NCBI GenBank assembly: GCA_947630745.1
Contig: CANRIT010000006.1
Coordinates: forward strand, 1,029 to 65,028
Origin: an uncultured Clostridia bacterium
GTDB taxonomy: Bacteria; Bacillota; Clostridia; Christensenellales; UBA1242
Direction: 5' to 3'
DNA: 64,000 nucleotides
Below are positions 33,093 through 49,142 of the stretch, one piece after another. Below the pieces are notes generated by a model that had not been told where the DNA came from, made no database searches, and saw nothing but the letters and a program-made list of their open reading frames with translations. Each line of letters begins with the position of its first letter. Positions within the stretch are counted from its first letter, which is position 1. The translations under genes were made by a program, and so were the position numbers.

Positions 33093-33114
33093 ATTTTAAA
33101 AAAGTGAGAAATAT

Positions 33115-33266
33115 TTACTTTTTGTGAGCAAAAAATAACAAAAACACTTACTTTTTGTGAGCAAAAAGTAACAAAAACACAAGTTAAAGTAAAAAATCAA
33201 AAATATAAAAAAATATAAACAATAATACTTACTTTTTGTGAGCAAAAAGTAATAAAAACACAAGTT
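33115..33266 (+). repeat. three copies of a 33-nt palindromic REP-like unit
   Basis: TTACTTTTTGTGAGCAAAAAGTAACAAAAACAC at 33115, 33148 and 33229, with at most one mismatch per copy. Confidence 0.9.
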
Positions 33267-40970: not shown

Positions 40971-42926
40971 ATGGAGTACAGAAAGTTTGAATTGGTTTCT
41001 AAATACAAACCCACTGGCGACCAGCCCGAGGCGATAAACGCGCTTGTTGAGGGAGTAAACGATGGGCTTAGCGCGCAGGTGCTTAAAGGTGTTACGGGCA
41101 GCGGAAAGACGTTTACTATGGCAAATGTTATTGCTGCGGTTAACCGCCCCACCCTTGTGCTTGCCCACAACAAGACCTTGGCAGCACAATTGTGCAATGA
41201 ATTTAGAGAATTTTTTCCAAACAACAGAGTGGAATTTTTTGTTTCGTACTACGACTATTATCAGCCTGAGGCGTACATCGTTTCAAGCGACACCTACATT
41301 GAAAAAGACATGAGCGTAAACGATGAAATTGACAAGCTTAGGCACAGTGCAACCAGCAGTTTGCTTGAGCGAAGTGACACAATTGTGGTGGCATCCGTAT
41401 CGTGCATATATGGTTTGGGCGCGCCGGACGAGTATTTTAATTTACAAATTTCAATGCGAATTGGCGACAAATTTTCGCGCGATGAACTTATTAACCGTCT
41501 TATTGCCATACAGTACACCCGCAACGAGATTGATTTTCAGCGTTCAACTTTTAGGGCGCGCGGCGATGTGGTGGACATTTTTCCAGCCGACAGCAGCGAA
41601 ATTGCGGTTAGGATAAGCTTTTTTGATGACGAAATTGAAAGCATAAGCGAATTTGACCCAGTTACGGGCAAGGTGCTTAACAAGCTTAAACATATTGCCA
41701 TCTACCCCGCCAGCCACTACGCAGTTGGGAGCGAAAAGTTGCAGCACGCGCTTGACGAGATACGCAAAGATGCCGCTGAGCGTGAGGAATTTTTTAAGAG
41801 ACAGGACAAACTTATTGAGGCGCAGCGCATACGCGAACGCACTAATTACGATTTGGAAATGATGCAAGAAATGGGATATTGTTCGGGGATTGAAAACTAT
41901 TCGCGCTATTTTGACGGGCGCGAGCCGGGCATGCCGCCATACACCTTGCTTGACTATTTCCCTAAGGGGTTTTTGCTGTTTGTGGACGAAAGCCATATCA
42001 CCCTTCCGCAAGTGCGCGGGATGTACAATGGTGACCGTGCGCGCAAAACAAGCCTTGTGGACTACGGTTTCCGCCTGCCTAGCGCGTTTGACAACCGGCC
42101 GCTTAATTTTGATGAATTTAATGCGCGGATTGGGCAGACGATTTATGTTTCTGCCACGCCAAATGACTACGAACTTAAACTTGCCGGCCAGGTGGTTGAG
42201 CAAGTTATTAGGCCTACCTACCTTTTGGACCCAGAAATTTTTATCCGCCCAAGTGTTGGGCAGGTGGACGATTTGCTTGAAGAAATTCGACATGTAACAA
42301 GCGAGCATGGAAAAATTTTGGTTACCACGCTTACCAAAAAGATGGCGGAAGATTTGTGCGCGTATTTTGAAGAACAAGGAGTGCGGGTAAAATATCTGCA
42401 CAGTGACATCGACACGCTTGAACGCGTTAAAATTCTTAACGAATTGCGCGCGGATGAGTTTGATGTTTTGGTAGGTATCAACCTTTTGCGCGAGGGTCTG
42501 GATTTGCCCGAAGTTATGCTTGTGGCAATTTTGGATGCGGATAAAGAAGGATTTTTGCGCTCTGCCACCAGCCTTATACAGATTGTTGGGCGTGCGGCGC
42601 GCAACAGCAAAAGCCGTGTGATTATGTACGCTGATATGATAACCGACAGCATGCAAAAATGTATTGATGAAACAAATCGCAGGCGCGAATTGCAGCAAGC
42701 GTACAACAAAAAGCACGGAGTTGAACCACAAACTATTAAAAAGGAAATTGTTGACACGCTTAAAATTCGCATGGAAAATGACGAAAAACCTTCTTCTAAA
42801 CAAGATATTGCAAAACAAATTGAACAACTTAAAGGCATGATGAACACTGCCGCCAGCCAGCTAGATTTTGAAACTGCCATAAAATTGCGCGAAGAAATCG
42901 CCAAACTTAAAAGAAAACTGCGTTAA
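40971..42926 (+). CDS. uvrB: excinuclease ABC subunit B
   Basis: [20 protein letters not shown] beta-hairpin, [19 protein letters not shown]-terminal UVR domain. Confidence 0.98.
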
Positions 42927-43034
42927 CTCTTTTTGTAAAAAGAGTACCAGAAAAACCCGTCATTAATTATTATAAATTTAAATAAACAATTTTTATTTTA
43001 CTCTTTTTTGTAAAAAGAGTAACAGAAAAACGGG
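42924..43034 (+). repeat. two copies of the palindromic REP-like unit (reverse complement of the 47.3-kb repeat)
   Basis: TAACTCTTTTTGTAAAAAGAGTACCAGAAAAACCCG (42924) and TTACTCTTTTTTGTAAAAAGAGTAACAGAAAAACGGG (42998). Confidence 0.88.
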
Positions 43035-43095
43035 TCAAAATACAATAATAGTAATAGAAAAACAAGTCAAATAAAATTAAAACCTTATTTAAAGT

Positions 43096-43130: not shown

Positions 43131-46100
43131 TTAATCTTGTTTGTCAGCGTCTTGATTGTCAGCGTTGTCTTTGTCGGCTGGTTCTTCTACTTTTTCTGCT
43201 TTGTCGTCTGCTTTTTTGCTTTTGCTGGCAGATTTTTTGGCAGGTTTTTTGCTTGTAGTTTCGCTGGTTAATGCTGCTGGTTTTTGTTTTTTGCTGCTTT
43301 TGCCAGTGAATAAGAAGAACATAATTACGCCAATCAATATGATGCTAGAAACAACAATCAATATAATGCCAATTTTTGAATTTGACAAGCTGGTTGGCTC
43401 TGCCTTTGCTGTTACGCTAAACTTAATTTCGTATGGGTCGCTTTTGTTCTGCTGATTATCTTCCGCAGTGAACACAAATCTGTATGTGCCAATTGATGAA
43501 ATTGTGTAGTTGTAAACAGTAAAGCCGTCTTCTATTGTGCTGGTCTTACTAACCTCGTTGTCTTCGCTGTCAACAAGTTTAATTGTCAAGCTGCTCCAAC
43601 TGTAATTGTCGCGCTCGCCTTGTGCTGGGTCTTCCGTATTTTCAACAATTTTAAAGTTGACATTGTCCTTTTTGTTGTTGCTGTTGGTGTAAGAAGTCCA
43701 AGTGTACAAGTTTTTGTTGTCTTGCGTTGCGGTGATGGTCATAATTTTATCAATTGTGCTGAATTTAACTGCAATGTTGATGTCACTGTCAGTGTAAGTT
43801 ATTTTGTCTTGCAATGCACCCGCATTTACCCTAAATTTAGGTGGAATATTGTCGCCATAAGTTATGGTCAATTCTTTGTGGTCGTAATAGTTGCTTGGAG
43901 CATCGGTATATGTTTCGTAACTTATATTGTACACGCCTATGCCCGAAGTTTTAATCACCCAATTTTTGCCAGATGCATCCCTTGTTGCCTCGCTCCAACT
44001 TGTTGCATTTTGGCGTTTGTACAACAACTTAGTTTCACTTACATTGTACCCTTCTTGTGTTGCAACCCATTGCGGAATAATCAACTGCTTTTCTTCGTTG
44101 GCTGCGGTGTAAGAGAAGTATTTTGGAAGGTTGAAATCTTCATCCCAAACAATGCTTGCCGTACCGTCAGTTGCATGTTGTGCCTCCACAGTAACGGTAA
44201 TTTCGTATGGTGGAATTACGTGAACGCCTTTATCTTTAGTTTCGTCTGTCCAACTTACATTAACTTCAAATGTGTAGCGGCCAGCGGTGAACAATTGCCA
44301 TCCGCCGTTAACTTCTTCGTAATGTTTGCCTTGAACCTTGGTTGGAACAATTTCTATGTTAAGGTTTTCATCATCAACAATTTCCTTGCTGTTGTCGTTA
44401 CCATCGTAAACATGTGGGGTGATTTGCAAAATGTCGCCCACTGTTGCTGTGTAGCTTGAGCCGCTACCCTCGCAATTTACATACACATCCAAAAGTGGTT
44501 GTGCGGTTGATACAACCTTAAACGAATAGTGCGCAACTGTGGTGTTGCCCGCATCGTCAGTTGCGGTGTAAACCACAACATATGTGCCAACTGCGGTTGT
44601 TGTGATGTGACCAGACACCTTGCCCTTGTATATGGAATATTCATCCAAATATTTGTAATTTTTGTGGAAGGTTAAATCTTTAACATCAGTGCTGATATCG
44701 CCTTCTGGAATGATGTAATAGAACACGCTGGTTGACAAATTTTTATCTTTCACGTCGCTAAATTGAACGATTGGGATTTTTACATCAACCCCTTGTCCTA
44801 CTGGTGTAGTGTCACTCGAATCATTTTCAAATATTTGCTTATGCTCATTGCTTTCGTATTGAACAGAATTAATGGTTGGCACATCAGAGTCTTGTTCATC
44901 AGCAATATAAAGCGAAGTTGTGTCAAACTTAACCACGCCATCGTCATTTATTGTTAATGCAAGCACATAAATTTTGCCGTCCTCGCCTTTGCTTACATTT
45001 TCTGGTATAGTAGTTTCAAACTTAGTTGTGCTGCCGTCAACAAGGTCAAATTTATAAACATTTGTTGCGCCGTTTAGTTTTGTTTTTAAAGCGTCAGTCA
45101 ATAAATTTATAATGCTATCTGTGTTACCTTTGACCTTTTTTGCCTCGTTTATAACTTCATCAATTTGTATGGTACTGAAATCTTTATCTGAATAGTACAT
45201 TGCGTTAACAAGGCGCAAATCAACATCGTCATTTGAGTTGACAGTAAAGCTCACCTTTTCACCCTCGTAAACAGTTGGATTGTTGTTGTTTACAATATTG
45301 ATGGATAAGTTGGTATCTTTTGCATCGCTGCTTACAATTTTAAACGAATATTCAGTTGAAGATTGCTCGTAAAGCGCATTTCTACGCGTATAGGTCTGCG
45401 AAGATGATTGATAGGTTGATTTCACCTTAACTTCGTAGCACAAGCGGTATTCTTTATCCAAAATGCCATTAGGAACTTCTGCGCCGTCTTTAGCAAATTT
45501 GAATGTTGCGCTTTTTGCAAGCTGTTCAAAATATTTCTTTTGGCTTTCTGCATCGTTGGCTTCAATTGGCTTATTTTCTGCATCGTAAACAAAGTTGTAG
45601 CCGTCATTTTCTGTAACAGCAACATACTTATCGTTTGCGTAGTCAATTTTTACGCCATCGATGTAGTATTTTGTGCCGCTTTCCTTTTCAGTAAAGTAGC
45701 GCACAACCATAAGGTCGGTATAGTCGTCAACTGGGCTGTTGAAGTACACTGCTGGGAAGACCAAACCGCTGTCTTTGGTGTAATTGTATTCCGCCTTAAT
45801 TTCTGCCACTGCGGATTTAACTGCATTTTCGCCCTCGTCAGTTGCAACAAAATTGCCGTTTCCATCAAAAATTGTGTAGTCATAAACCGCCTTAACAGTT
45901 GGGTTTATGTTGTTGCGGCTGAAATAGCCTAAATCGTACACCTTTTCAATTGGAGTTTGGCTGAAATAGTCTTGAATTGTGTATTTAACTTTGTAGTTTT
46001 TGCCTTCAAGTTCTTGATAAGTGTGGTTGCCAAAGCCATCATCACCCGTGGTGAAATTGAAGGTGAAATTGTTGTTTGTAAGGGTTTGTTTGATTTCTGG

Positions 46101-47114
46101 GTTGTCTTCTTGATAAATTTCAATTTTAATTACATTTTTAGCAACATCGGTTTGGCTGAAATTTTGCAAATTATAGTCAACTTGTGGATTGCGCAAAACC
46201 ACATTTTTGTCGCCCAATTTTGCGGTTGGTGGAGTTGGAGTTTTGATGTCGATGTTGTCCGCAGTTGGTGCAACAAAGTCTTTGTCAACCGTAATTTCTT
46301 TCTGCACAGGAGTTGCTTCTTTATATGTGTAAGTTATAACATACTTGTCTTCGTCTTTAAAGGTCAGCACGCGGGTGTCTTTGTTATAGGCACTGCCCTC
46401 TTGTGTGGTGCCGTTTTCTGAATTGTAAATTTCCACGCCGCCATAGCTGATGGTGAATGGTACTTCTTCAAACTTCTTTTCCTTACCATCTTCCACCGTT
46501 TGATAGCCGTACAATTTTGGCACGGTGAAGGTTGAATTTAAAGATGCCATTGTTGGGAAAAGCACATTTAAATTGGTTTCAGTATACTTGCCGTCCGCGT
46601 AGTCTATTTGTTTTTGTTCAATAACATATTTTGCGCCAATAACTTCAACTTTGTAATCTTTTGAAAAATATGTTGTGTTGTTTTGGCTGTCAATTTTGAT
46701 GTAGTAGATGTTGTAAGTGTTTGTTGTTTTGTCCAAGATTTTAACTGCGTTATTTTCGTCATCCGCTTGGAAGAAAGTTGTGTCTGTGTTAAATTCTGTG
46801 TCACTTTTTTTATCTTTTACTTTAAAATCACGCACAAAACCGCCCTGGTCTACCACACGGATATAGTATTCGCCAGATTCGTCTTTTAAATATGGGATTT
46901 TTAGTTCTGCATTTGAGTCTTTGCTGTAATCCACCTTTTTAGGCATTTTAACTGAATTAAAGGTTGCTGTTGGTGTTTTGCCTGATTCCCAATCTTCCGC
47001 TGCTGCCACACCCGTTGGTATAAGTTTAAGTGGGGTTAAAGCAAACATAAAACTGCATGCTAAAAATGCAATAAATACAAATAGTCTTTTAATATGCTTT
47101 TGTAAAACCTTCAT
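43131..47114 (-). CDS. large cell-surface protein with Ig-like repeats and a C-terminal TM anchor
   Basis: Signal peptide ending in VAAA, Ig-like hallmarks (GTYVVVYTATDDAGN, GTYRFVFTAEDNQQN), TM helix IGIILIVVSSIILIGVIMFFLF, charged tail. AAGGAG RBS before MKVLQK. Confidence 0.82.
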   Translation of the reverse strand: MKVLQKHIKRLFVFIAFLACSFMFALTPLKLIPTGVAAAEDWESGKTPTATFNSVKMPKKVDYSKDSNAELKIPYLKDESGEYYIRVVDQGGFVRDFKVKDKKSDTEFNTDTTFFQADDENNAVKILDKTTNTYNIYYIKIDSQNNTTYFSKDYKVEVIGAKYVIEQKQIDYADGKYTETNLNVLFPTMASLNSTFTVPKLYGYQTVEDGKEKKFEEVPFTISYGGVEIYNSENGTTQEGSAYNKDTRVLTFKDEDKYVITYTYKEATPVQKEITVDKDFVAPTADNIDIKTPTPPTAKLGDKNVVLRNPQVDYNLQNFSQTDVAKNVIKIEIYQEDNPEIKQTLTNNNFTFNFTTGDDGFGNHTYQELEGKNYKVKYTIQDYFSQTPIEKVYDLGYFSRNNINPTVKAVYDYTIFDGNGNFVATDEGENAVKSAVAEIKAEYNYTKDSGLVFPAVYFNSPVDDYTDLMVVRYFTEKESGTKYYIDGVKIDYANDKYVAVTENDGYNFVYDAENKPIEANDAESQKKYFEQLAKSATFKFAKDGAEVPNGILDKEYRLCYEVKVKSTYQSSSQTYTRRNALYEQSSTEYSFKIVSSDAKDTNLSINIVNNNNPTVYEGEKVSFTVNSNDDVDLRLVNAMYYSDKDFSTIQIDEVINEAKKVKGNTDSIINLLTDALKTKLNGATNVYKFDLVDGSTTKFETTIPENVSKGEDGKIYVLALTINDDGVVKFDTTSLYIADEQDSDVPTINSVQYESNEHKQIFENDSSDTTPVGQGVDVKIPIVQFSDVKDKNLSTSVFYYIIPEGDISTDVKDLTFHKNYKYLDEYSIYKGKVSGHITTTAVGTYVVVYTATDDAGNTTVAHYSFKVVSTAQPLLDVYVNCEGSGSSYTATVGDILQITPHVYDGNDNSKEIVDDENLNIEIVPTKVQGKHYEEVNGGWQLFTAGRYTFEVNVSWTDETKDKGVHVIPPYEITVTVEAQHATDGTASIVWDEDFNLPKYFSYTAANEEKQLIIPQWVATQEGYNVSETKLLYKRQNATSWSEATRDASGKNWVIKTSGIGVYNISYETYTDAPSNYYDHKELTITYGDNIPPKFRVNAGALQDKITYTDSDINIAVKFSTIDKIMTITATQDNKNLYTWTSYTNSNNKKDNVNFKIVENTEDPAQGERDNYSWSSLTIKLVDSEDNEVSKTSTIEDGFTVYNYTISSIGTYRFVFTAEDNQQNKSDPYEIKFSVTAKAEPTSLSNSKIGIILIVVSSIILIGVIMFFLFTGKSSKKQKPAALTSETTSKKPAKKSASKSKKADDKAEKVEEPADKDNADNQDADKQD

Positions 47115-47351
47115 AATGCTCCTTTTTTGCAATAGCAATATATTTATACTTAAATATTGTAATAAAATGCCCAAAAAATGTCAAACAAATTAGGGGCATA
47201 ATTCACAATTATTTAAAATTTAGTGTAAATAGTTTTTGCAAATTTATTGTACAAAATTTTAACTAGTTTTGTCGAAAAATGTTTTTCCCGCCCGCATGCC
47301 TTTCGCCGCGGTTTTCAGCAAGGCAAATTTAGTTCAATCAAGCTGAATATT

Positions 47352-47675
47352 CTGGGTTTTTCTGGTACTCTTTTCCCAAAAAGAGTACGGAGCGGAGGTT
47401 ACTGCAAAGGTTGTTTAGAACGACCAGCCCCGACCGACTGGGTTTTTCTGGTACTCTTTTCCCAAAAAGAGTACAGATGTTTATGGTAAGGATTGTTTAA
47501 AACAACCAACTCTGACCTACTGGGTTTTTCTGGTACTCTTTTCCCAAAAAGAGTACGGATGGTTACAGCAAAGATTGTTTAGAACAGCAAGTTCGACCGA
47601 CTGGGTTTTTCTGGTACTCTTTTCCCAAAAAGAGTACGAAGGTTTTTCTGGCAACTCTTTTCCCAAAAAGAGTTG
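47352..47675. repeat. array of four identical 37-nt hairpin repeats plus one variant, with related 44-49 nt spacers (CRISPR-like appearance)
   Basis: CTGGGTTTTTCTGGTACTCTTTTCCCAAAAAGAGTAC at 47352, 47438, 47520 and 47601. Variant copy at 47641. Confidence 0.95.
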
Positions 47676-47706
47676 GGGTGCGGGTAGTTTAATTAAAAAA
47701 GGAAGG

Positions 47707-48240
47707 CTAAATGCCTTCTAAAAGTTGAAGTTGTTGTTGTGCATACTCAGGCGAAATAAAGTTAAATTCCTTACTCGACGCCAAAAAGTATTGTTTTTGC
47801 CTATGTTGTTGCAGTTTTTGAATAAACTCTTTTGGCAGATATTTGTAGTGTTCAATCAAAATTTTGTTAAGCACGGCAAAATTAAGTGTTTTTGCTTGTT
47901 TAAATGCTTGTTTTGTAGACAAAGCCCACTCGTTTGGCTCTACCCTATCCACCTTTTTAAAATCGCAAATGACATTCATATCTTGTGGCGAACATACAAA
48001 TCGCGTTATAATCTCAATTTTTTCCGCCACCGTGCGCGGCAATTCTTTAACCGCGTTGGCGTCCATATAATAAAATTCGCATAACTTTTCTGGTTCGCCA
48101 AAAATGGCGCGTGCGTTCCTTGGGCGTTTTAAAATGACTCTATCGCCGTACACGCCACGCCCACGTTTATACTCCAAAATTTCATAAAAATTGTTAATCA
48201 AAAAGTCTAACAATGGCCAATTTTCTACGTTAACCTTCAT
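47707..48240 (-). CDS. hypothetical protein
   Basis: 177-aa ORF with AGGTGG RBS, 11 nt downstream of the HicB-like gene. Confidence 0.75.
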   Translation of the reverse strand: MKVNVENWPLLDFLINNFYEILEYKRGRGVYGDRVILKRPRNARAIFGEPEKLCEFYYMDANAVKELPRTVAEKIEIITRFVCSPQDMNVICDFKKVDRVEPNEWALSTKQAFKQAKTLNFAVLNKILIEHYKYLPKEFIQKLQQHRQKQYFLASSKEFNFISPEYAQQQLQLLEGI

Positions 48241-48251
48241 TAAACCACCTT

Positions 48252-48515
48252 TTAAGCAAGCGCATCCACCAAAAGAACTATGTTATTTTTGTTCTTTTTA
48301 TCTGCATAATATTTTTCAAACGGACTTGGGGATTCAATCTCGCAATCGTATTTTATGGCACAATCCACCATAGCACAAAGCATTTCTTTTGCTTTAATGT
48401 ACGCGCTAACCACGCAATCGCCTTCAGTAACAATTTGAAGGTCAGGTATTTTTATGGTGAAATACCCAGTATCTTCATCCTTATACAAAATTGCGGTGTA
48501 AACTAACTCTTTCAT
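48252..48515 (-). CDS. HicB-like antitoxin domain protein
   Basis: Y.AI...DE..GY.TI.IPDL.I.TEGD....A...AKE.L pattern of the HicB N-terminal domain, ending with VLLVD. TTTACA-17-TAAAAT promoter. Confidence 0.7.
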   Translation of the reverse strand: MKELVYTAILYKDEDTGYFTIKIPDLQIVTEGDCVVSAYIKAKEMLCAMVDCAIKYDCEIESPSPFEKYYADKKNKNNIVLLVDALA

Positions 48516-48597: not shown

Positions 48598-48794
48598 AAA
48601 ACTTTTCAGTGTGAAAAGTTACAAAAGCAAAAATGGGTTTCGATTCCCCTTTTAAACCCACAAACGACTTACTTTAAAAAAGTAAGCAAAAAGTTGACAT
48701 ATAGCATTATTCTATAATGATCTTTTTATAACTTATAATTAATAGGTTTTATTTATATTAGTTCTTTTGTTACTTTTCTAGTTTAGAAAAGTAA
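48598..48794. repeat. three further degenerate copies of the palindromic REP-like unit
   Basis: AACTTTTCAGTGTGAAAAGTTACAAAAGC, CTTACTTTAAAAAAGTAAGCAAAAAG, and the inverted copy GTTCTTTTGTTACTTTTCTAGTTTAGAAAAGTAA (48761-48794). Confidence 0.75.
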
Positions 48795-48824
48795 ATAAAA
48801 AAAAAACGCCCGCGTGGGCGCATG

Positions 48825-49142
48825 TTATGCTGTAATGCCTTGTTCTGCAACCTTTTCGTCTACTGATTTCGTTGGTTGCATTGCTTTGCTTAATTTTTTG
48901 CCAGCGGCTGCTGGTAATTTTTTACCTTTGTTTTTACTGAAACTTAAAGAAGTTTCTATTAATAAACTTGTTCTTTCTCTATTATCTTTAAAAAGAGCAT
49001 GATTGGTTTTTGCAACCAATGGGCGAAGTGGTTTTTTGATTGAACGTCCAACTAAATGATTAGCATCAATCTGTTTACGCACTTCATTCAACTCGTTTAA
49101 ATAATCTAATCTACCTTGAATTAATGTTTTAGCTGTTGCCAT
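48825..49142 (-). CDS. small basic hypothetical protein
   Basis: AGGAGG RBS, TTTACA-17-TATTAT promoter and CGCCC/GGGCG terminator with T10. Lys/Arg-rich, 105 aa. Confidence 0.8.
   Translation of the reverse strand: MATAKTLIQGRLDYLNELNEVRKQIDANHLVGRSIKKPLRPLVAKTNHALFKDNRERTSLLIETSLSFSKNKGKKLPAAAGKKLSKAMQPTKSVDEKVAEQGITA

Follow-up and report, generated by a model that had tools for sequence, protein, structure and literature searches.

An uncultured Clostridia bacterium of the family UBA1242 carries an array of short hairpin-forming repeats that resembles a CRISPR at positions 47310–47675 of a 64,000-nucleotide stretch of its DNA (the window; positions 1029–65028 of contig C6). The array had been pointed out in a preliminary description made from the sequence alone. 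We analyzed it in the source genome (G000), in the nearest relative (G001), and in other genomes, which are given G-numbers; individual loci are given L-numbers. The source assembly comprises 1.13 Mb in 19 contigs with a contig G+C content of 32–39% and is rated 98% complete. A genus set of 64 genomes and a family sample of 201 genomes were used for comparison. Onthoplasma has been placed in UBA1242 (order Christensenellales), among gut bacteria with reduced genomes (PMC12306168).

The array is antisense to both flanking genes. Along the minus strand, the order is a 177-aa gene, its intrinsic terminator, the array, a sigma-70-like promoter, and a 1347-aa gene (Table 1). It occupies an insertion specific to this lineage, with the terminator of the 177-aa gene on one side and the promoter of the 1347-aa gene on the other, and lies 170–520 nt upstream of this promoter. 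The frame of the 1347-aa gene opens at 47174 in the open reading frame (ORF) call, and the ATG given in Table 1 is its likely start.

Four identical 37-nt repeats are separated by linkers of 49, 45, and 44 nt, exactly as the preliminary description had it, and start 86, 82, and 81 nt apart. Each repeat consists of the lead CTGG, the tag GTTTTTCTG, and the hairpin GTACTCTTTT-CCCA-AAAAGAGTAC. The hairpin has a folding energy of −8.2 kcal/mol as single-stranded DNA, which none of 200 shuffles matched. Tandem Repeats Finder reported a period of 82, 3.5 copies, and 85% matches. A fifth copy begins 38 nt after the start of copy 4 with no long linker between them. Its loop is CCCA, as in copies 1–4, and its stem is CAACTCTTTT/AAAAGAGTTG in place of GTACTCTTTT/AAAAGAGTAC; both outer pairs are swapped together (CAAC../..GTTG) and still pair, as had been noted.

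The linkers are homologous to each other yet diverged, with pairwise identities of 67%, 80%, and 70%, in agreement with the first reading. Invariant columns number 37 of 37 in the repeat and 26 of 49 in the linker; this contrast is far beyond chance (Fisher p = 1.6e-7). A decayed unit had also been proposed before copy 1. The likeness of this segment is present but weak, at 71% over a unit of 82 nt in which the repeat itself is counted. The linker is relatively GC-rich by eye and had no other match in the source genome or in 60 relatives. Its sole match among phages covered 38 nt at 86.8% identity (E = 0.01; one phage, two accessions), and none was found among plasmids. Contigs assembled from four DNA runs break inside the array, and the contig of a related strain from another sample has one extra 38-nt unit at the array end.

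Table 1 Features of the array and its surroundings (positions in the window).
Feature	Position	Strand	Remarks
Three-copy family cluster	42919..43069	−	42919–42964, 42993–43039, degenerate copy at about 43050–43069
1347-aa secreted-protein gene	43131..47114	−	No Pfam family; start ATG 47114 read by eye
Sigma-70-like promoter of 1347-aa gene	47156..47184	−	TTGACA, 17 nt, TACAAT; 11/12; conserved in relatives
Remnant of the 3′ half of the terminator carried here by other genus species (..TTCGACATAACTAG + T-run)	47261..47276	−	
Weakly linker-like segment before copy 1 (decayed unit)	47313..47351	+	Repeat search
Repeat copy 1, CTGG + GTTTTTCTG + hairpin	47352..47388	+	R1 48.6 bits
Linker 1, 49 nt	47389..47437	+	Homologous to linkers 2 and 3
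Repeat copy 2, same as copy 1	47438..47474	+	R1 50.5 bits
Linker 2, 45 nt	47475..47519	+	
Repeat copy 3, same as copy 1	47520..47556	+	R1 49.2 bits
Linker 3, 44 nt	47557..47600	+	
Repeat copy 4, same as copy 1	47601..47637	+	R1 46.1 bits
Copy 5, outer two stem pairs swapped	47641..47675	+	nhmmer E 2e-5; start approximate
Intrinsic terminator of 177-aa gene	47702..47718	−	Array starts just past it
177-aa gene	47707..48240	−	No Pfam family

A family of dispersed repeats

A relaxed motif search recovered the array repeat at many other places in the source genome. An nhmmer search seeded with 23 copies placed about 28 forward copies at 11 intergenic loci of the 1.13-Mb genome. A covariance model (R1) built on 21 copies of the same geometry, with one array copy in its seed, found 20 copies there at E ≤ 1e-4. 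The array is not an isolated locus but one of the clusters that this family forms across the genome, a dispersal that the first reading could not have revealed. A sister subfamily, TTTTTG + TTACTTTT..AAAAGTAA, contributes 10 further copies in the source genome. A tandem trio of this subfamily is found at 33113–33265 (−) of the window, with the form TGTTTTTG + TTACTTTTTG-CTCA-CAAAAAGTAA, and two of its copies are only 33 nt apart. A generic search for a T-run followed by a hairpin gave 156 matches in the real genome and 147 in the reversed genome; therefore, only the sequence-defined subfamilies were used.

The element measures about 32–46 nt and comprises a 9-nt tag and a 24–25-nt hairpin. Its consensus is (T)TGAC, 2–3 nt, GTTTTTCTG, and an A/T-rich hairpin of 10–11 bp; the TGAC part is frequent, not constant. 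The tag is pyrimidine-rich, unpaired, and near-invariant. In the hairpin, the inner 7 bp (CTCTTTT/AAAAGAG) are fixed, covariation is seen in the outer pairs, and the loop can vary freely. TTGAC was considered as a −35 box and rejected, as inspection by eye showed no −10 hexamer at a suitable distance from it.

A strict pattern and R1 matched the same 9 of the 64 genus genomes. Counts (strict pattern/R1) were 19/20 in G000, 10/9 in G001, 3/9 in G024, and 1–4 in the six others, and the reversed-pattern control gave no match in any genus genome. The sister subfamily is present in 8 of these 9 genomes, and the 16-mer of the repeat occurs in 2 of the 201 sampled family genomes. Thus, the family is restricted to a subclade and is most expanded in the source genome. 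The family pattern had no match in a viral contig collection. Metagenome contigs gave 102 stretches with a single match each and no arrays, which is uninformative for an A/T-rich 22-base pattern.

The flanking genes, read from crude ORF calls, were convergent at five of the 11 loci, co-directional at five, and divergent at one. Of the hairpins, three overlap with stop codons, and a further two are at most 5 nt away from one. The three-copy cluster just downstream of the 1347-aa gene is inverted relative to the array, and its last hairpin overlaps the stop codon of the convergent gene. The array and most clusters in G000 are direct repeats. Inverted pairs of the two subfamilies, whose facing tags can pair with each other, are found repeatedly at orthologous loci of several species.

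In our interpretation, the array is probably a false CRISPR, that is, a locally amplified cluster of clade-specific palindromic elements resembling REPs (repetitive extragenic palindromes), BIMEs (bacterial interspersed mosaic elements), and REPINs (REP doublets forming hairpins). A REP/BIME-like nature was among the candidates of the preliminary description and is the one supported here. The array itself would need no function of its own.

Structure and conservation of the element

For pair counting, 43 copies from 9 genomes were aligned to R1, an alignment that leans towards the structure of the model; 97.9% of the cells were paired. Two-sided changes occurred in 4 of 10 stem pairs (35 cells), and none of 500 shuffles reached the covariation score. 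When the partner was slid by 1–3 columns, pairing fell to 62–74%. The hairpin, for which the preliminary description had one compensated copy, is thus a real structure that covaries across the family. Tag positions hardly varied among the 43 copies (G in 40, the five T in 42–43, C in 38, T in 42, and G in 42). The gap between the fixed half-stems ranged from 2 to 7 nt; therefore, a hairpin fits these data and a duplex operator of fixed spacing does not. CtsR- or CIRCE-like operators were dropped as the stems vary. Mispairs were few (TT 4, GA 2, CT 2, TG 2, and TC 1) and showed no strand asymmetry.

A copy upstream of dnaJ is identical at 28 of 28 tag and stem positions in G000, G001, G022, G278, and G036. 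Its loops differ (ATAA, ATAA, CTA, GT, and GC, respectively), as do the flanks and the rest of the spacer, and the gene upstream of the element differs in two of the five species. By this comparison of sequences, the orthologous copy is under purifying selection. Together, the family-wide covariation and the dnaJ orthologues demonstrate that tag and stem are under selection.

The break in synteny upstream of dnaJ falls at the 5′ edge of the element. Distant species without the family (L093, L097, L099, and L101) have a hairpin of the same design just upstream of dnaJ, in which a T-rich run ending in TG is followed by a T-rich 5′ arm, e.g., TTTCTTTTG + CTGTCTTTTCTT..AAGAAAAGCAG.

The preliminary description held that the structure is selected while the linker drifts. 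Selection on stem and tag stands, but the invariance within the array also covers the CCCA loop, the CTGG lead, and the outer pairs, all of which are free to vary in the family. Because array identity extends to these parts, and because the same hairpin and loop occur at a non-syntenic locus in G001, recent copying or gene conversion of one variant would fit the identity of the array copies better than structural selection alone.

Turnover of the locus among relatives

We compared the spacer between the 177-aa and 1347-aa genes with its counterparts at 41 syntenic loci of the 177-aa gene. An R1-type copy was found in this spacer at one of them, that of G001. Thirteen of the loci were read; most have a short spacer with a terminator, and 12 have the 1347-aa gene and its promoter downstream (L029 does not). 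Shared by G000 and G001 are the terminator, a copy beside the terminator, and the promoter-proximal 180 nt (85% identity). The copy in G001 (CTAC../..GTAG) occupies the same place as copy 5, which is therefore probably an older resident copy. The array stretch of about 390 nt is unique to G000, and G001 holds a different repeat of three hairpins there. The 3′-half terminator remnant survives in both genomes as ..TTCGACAAAACTAG.. and marks where the lineage-specific, array-bearing insertion ends on its inner side. The linkers differ from each other by 20–33%, exceeding the 15% divergence of G000 and G001 in the adjacent spacer, yet G001 is without the array.

These comparisons bear on a role of the array as a protein-binding platform, in which a nucleoid protein, gyrase, or a dedicated regulator would bind duplex or cruciform DNA and insulate or regulate the promoter of the 1347-aa gene. 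The distance to this conserved promoter, the inverted copies on the other side of the gene, and the near-invariant tag, as sequence-specific recognition predicts, all suit such a role. However, the R1-type element is missing from the spacer at 40 of the 41 syntenic loci, and of the 13 loci read, 12 have both the gene and its promoter next to the spacer; G001 has a different filling. In addition, a dimer binding duplex DNA would not tolerate the variable spacing of the half-sites, and a candidate protein was not identified. We consider this role improbable.

Turnover was also seen at other loci. In G001, four tightly packed copies lie between plsX and rnc and abut the rnc start (L019, contig C13, 2796–3020), and one of them has the exact hairpin and loop of the array. 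In G000, plsX and rnc are on different contigs (C3:50229 and C5:21233), with no elements beside either gene. Elements coincide with synteny junctions both here and at dnaJ. At the rubrerythrin locus, R1 had 7 matches in G000, 2 in G001, and none in G012, G014, and G024. An operon spacer on contig C9 measures 21–28 nt in three species; in G000, where it contains an element, it reaches about 95 nt, and G001 has 367 nt.

The 367-nt filling in G001 (L232, contig C23, about 830–1196) is partly GC-rich, and parts of it match C6:2474–2585 (79%) and C2:8742–8783 (98%) of G000; thus, it appears to be another dispersed repeat. Rfam had no match to it, and scans of two G001 loci at gathering thresholds gave nothing.

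The three-hairpin filling at the array site in G001 belongs to a second composite repeat, likewise dispersed and about 95 nt long. Over 91 nt, the G000 copy shares 95.6% identity with the one in that place. A copy lies in the window (48601–48690, −), and other sites are C3:88934–89024, C9:37998–38090, and C3:59480–59514 in G000 and about 3710–3900 in L022. Its hairpins are CTTACTTT..AAAGTAAG; GGGGAATCG.AACCC(C/A), with a compensated GGGA..TCCC variant; and TAACTTTTC-ACAC-TGAAAAGTTA. In G001, the last two modules are tandemly duplicated with diverged linkers.

Tests for CRISPR and RNA functions

The array shares with CRISPR arrays near-identical direct repeats in the range of about 23–55 nt (four of 37 nt), a hairpin at the repeat terminus, and regular spacing (81–86 nt). 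The linkers, in contrast, are homologous to each other, and the same repeat occurs singly at many loci of the genome. In the 98%-complete genome, searches for Cas1 (PF01867) and for the Cas12f1-like/TnpB domain (PF07282) were negative, whereas the controls were positive; other cas families were not searched. Apart from the 38-nt phage match, the spacers had no meaningful match to phages or plasmids, and protospacers were not found. An orphan or degenerate CRISPR thus has a negligible probability, and the earlier statement that this is not a spacer-acquiring CRISPR holds. A false CRISPR is characterized, in the part of the source cited, by the absence of spacer diversity and of companion cas genes (PMC5294841); the array has this repeat-spacer appearance with undiverse spacers and no companion cas gene among those searched, and it lacks the STAR signature.

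STAR loci resemble the array in these respects and also in their interspersed intergenic positions and their expansion and contraction, as far as the cited passages describe them (PMC5294841, PMC3532100). They differ in having a GC-rich signature and direct repeats without a hairpin, whereas the elements here have an A/T hairpin and a pyrimidine tag.

An E-value search of 46500–48500 against Rfam 15 returned chance-level matches alone, none of them in the array at E ≤ 10, and the ARAGORN scan found no tRNA. No promoter-like site on the plus strand points into the array. RNAalifold on three units predicted 17 and 19 linker pairs on the two strands, none of them compensatory. These results speak against tandem small RNA genes or a processed multi-unit noncoding RNA, for which the regular units of about 82 nt, each ending in a stable hairpin, and the somewhat better folding of the whole region than of shuffles (z = −2.1) could be cited. 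There is no terminator for each unit, the array is absent from G001, and its conserved part also occurs in solitary copies, which lack a linker. Such an RNA is very unlikely.

It is also conceivable that the elements act chiefly as RNA hairpins, i.e., as 3′-end stabilizers, processing sites, or attenuators, and that the array represents stacked hairpins on a transcript, either read-through or antisense, with an effect on the expression of the flanking genes. The hairpins on or near stop codons, a sense copy located 29–65 nt upstream of the dnaJ start in five species (between dnaK and dnaJ in some), and the four copies abutting rnc in G001 point in this direction. REPs have been described as RNA elements that are plausibly transcribed and lie downstream of coding regions (PMC3733652). 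On the other hand, a hairpin followed by a U-tract is not the rule in either orientation, as the T-run precedes the hairpin. An intrinsic terminator was ruled out for this reason, the reverse strand having an A-run after the stem; a terminator scan flagged just copies 2 and 4, through chance T-rich sequence after the hairpin. Moreover, several clusters, including the array, follow a canonical terminator and precede the next promoter, a position in which transcription should be scarce. The orientation of the elements relative to neighboring genes is mixed, and G-U mispairs are not in excess over A-C. We regard an action chiefly as RNA as unlikely, though less so than the platform or noncoding RNA roles.

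Relation to REP elements and proposed origin

The preferred reading of the array as an amplified cluster of REP-like elements was compared with known repeat systems. The sources cited describe REP, BIME, and REPIN elements, in the parts used here, as tagged extragenic palindromes that are clustered or paired and lineage-specific (PMC3733652, PMC2817692, PMC3337134). The present elements are likewise short, dispersed extragenic palindromes (20–40 bp) with an unpaired conserved tag at one end, located mainly between convergent or co-directional genes and often just after coding regions. They are also clustered, and their families and copy numbers are species-specific. Inverted pairs that could fold into larger hairpins occur at several loci, but the array and most G000 clusters are direct. 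Unlike proteobacterial REPs, they carry the tag GTTTTTCTG, number about 20–40 and not hundreds, form a direct array, lack a RAYT (REP-associated tyrosine transposase) gene in the genomes searched, and reside in a reduced Clostridia host. Because they have neither the GTAG/CGTC tag nor a cognate RAYT gene, they are outside the REP families proper and constitute a new family of REP-like kind without a detectable RAYT. CGTC-tagged REPs offer a parallel, in that they "apparently lack a dedicated transposase" according to the cited passage (PMC3733652). Both are tagged palindromes for which no cognate enzyme was found; they differ in tag, stem composition (A/T-rich here), and taxa, and homology is not claimed.

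The subterminal hairpins of IS200/IS605 elements are another point of comparison. Here as there, a hairpin with an adjacent short specific sequence would suit a single-strand HUH enzyme. The TGAC or TTGAC that often precedes solitary copies here could be a target preference of this kind. In contrast to IS200/IS605 elements, the present element has one hairpin and no cargo, no Y1 or TnpB gene was found with it, and neither a target duplication nor a precise empty site was seen. A MITE (miniature inverted-repeat transposable element) does not fit, as no rve, DDE_Tnp_1, Y1, or TnpB gene was found and no target duplication was seen at the C9 site.

Several observations weigh against a REP-like cluster. 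The RAYT/Y1 domain (PF01797) was not found in any of the six element-bearing genomes searched (G000 and five others), nor were TnpB-type, rve, and DDE_Tnp_1 genes found in G000; mobility is therefore inferred solely from differences between genomes. Three tyrosine recombinases of G000 lie far from any element. No clean pair of filled and empty sites with a defined target was recovered (C9 site). The orientation of the elements agreed with the local majority gene strand at 8 loci and was opposite at 4; as there is no clear bias, a single-strand mechanism at the replication fork receives no support. The mispair pattern does not tell action at the DNA level from action at the RNA level. About 20–40 copies per genome is low for the class, for which more than 100 are said to be usual in the cited passage (PMC2817692), and the tag is neither of the two given for REPs (GTAG and CGTC) in the part of PMC3733652 used here. 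The copies in the array are direct and do not alternate as in BIMEs. The source of the relatively GC-rich linker was not traced in the genome, relatives, phages, or plasmids. Finally, conserved orthologous copies suit a host function better than a purely selfish element.

Under the REP-like reading, a unit of about 82 nt (element and linker) would have been duplicated in tandem by slippage or by unequal exchange between neighboring hairpins. The element parts may then have been kept identical by short-tract gene conversion or by re-copying of one active variant, while the linkers drifted. Alternatively, one variant may have inserted repeatedly beside a ..GAC.. motif in an older linker repeat. 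The element would act as a hairpin, either as extruded or single-stranded DNA or as RNA when transcribed, and its tag would be recognized by some factor. The host seems to use some copies, such as that upstream of dnaJ, as structural or processing hairpins.

A more speculative proposal, to which we attach a low probability, is that the tag and hairpin form the recognition site of a hairpin-specific enzyme or binding protein of this UBA1242 subclade, other than Y1/RAYT, that copies or converts the elements, some copies (such as that upstream of dnaJ) having been co-opted by the host as regulatory hairpins. Such a hypothetical protein would account for identical copies amid diverged linkers, for one variant being present in two species at loci that are not syntenic, and for expansions that affect the same spacers.

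Neighboring features in the window

The 1347-aa gene follows a strong conserved promoter in 12 of the 13 syntenic loci read (of 41; L022–L062), and its secreted product is possibly a major surface or S-layer-like protein. Inverted element clusters flank this gene in the source genome only. Directly upstream of the 177-aa gene is a gene for an 87-aa homologue of HicB-like antitoxins (PF15919, E = 2e-6; the two genes span 47707–48515, −). The two could form an unusual toxin-antitoxin pair.

At 48762–48826 (−), the rpoC terminator (GCGCCCACGCGGGCG + T-run) is followed by a hairpin of the family type, TTACTTTTCTA-AAC-TAGAAAAGTAA + CAAAAGAAC. This element adjoins a canonical terminator on its far side, as does the array.

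Implications

The analysis removes one false CRISPR. It indicates that a strongly reduced lineage of gut Clostridia, with a genome of about 1 Mb and no transposase among the families searched, still maintains and amplifies tagged palindromic repeats. The elements mark fast-changing spacers and synteny junctions, where they will break short-read assemblies. Were the more speculative proposal true, this would be a REPIN-like system independent of RAYT in a genome of about 1 Mb in which none of the transposase genes searched for was otherwise found. With a partner protein, REP/RAYT-type biology would extend beyond Y1 transposases; if there is none, these would be hairpin repeats that spread by recombination alone.

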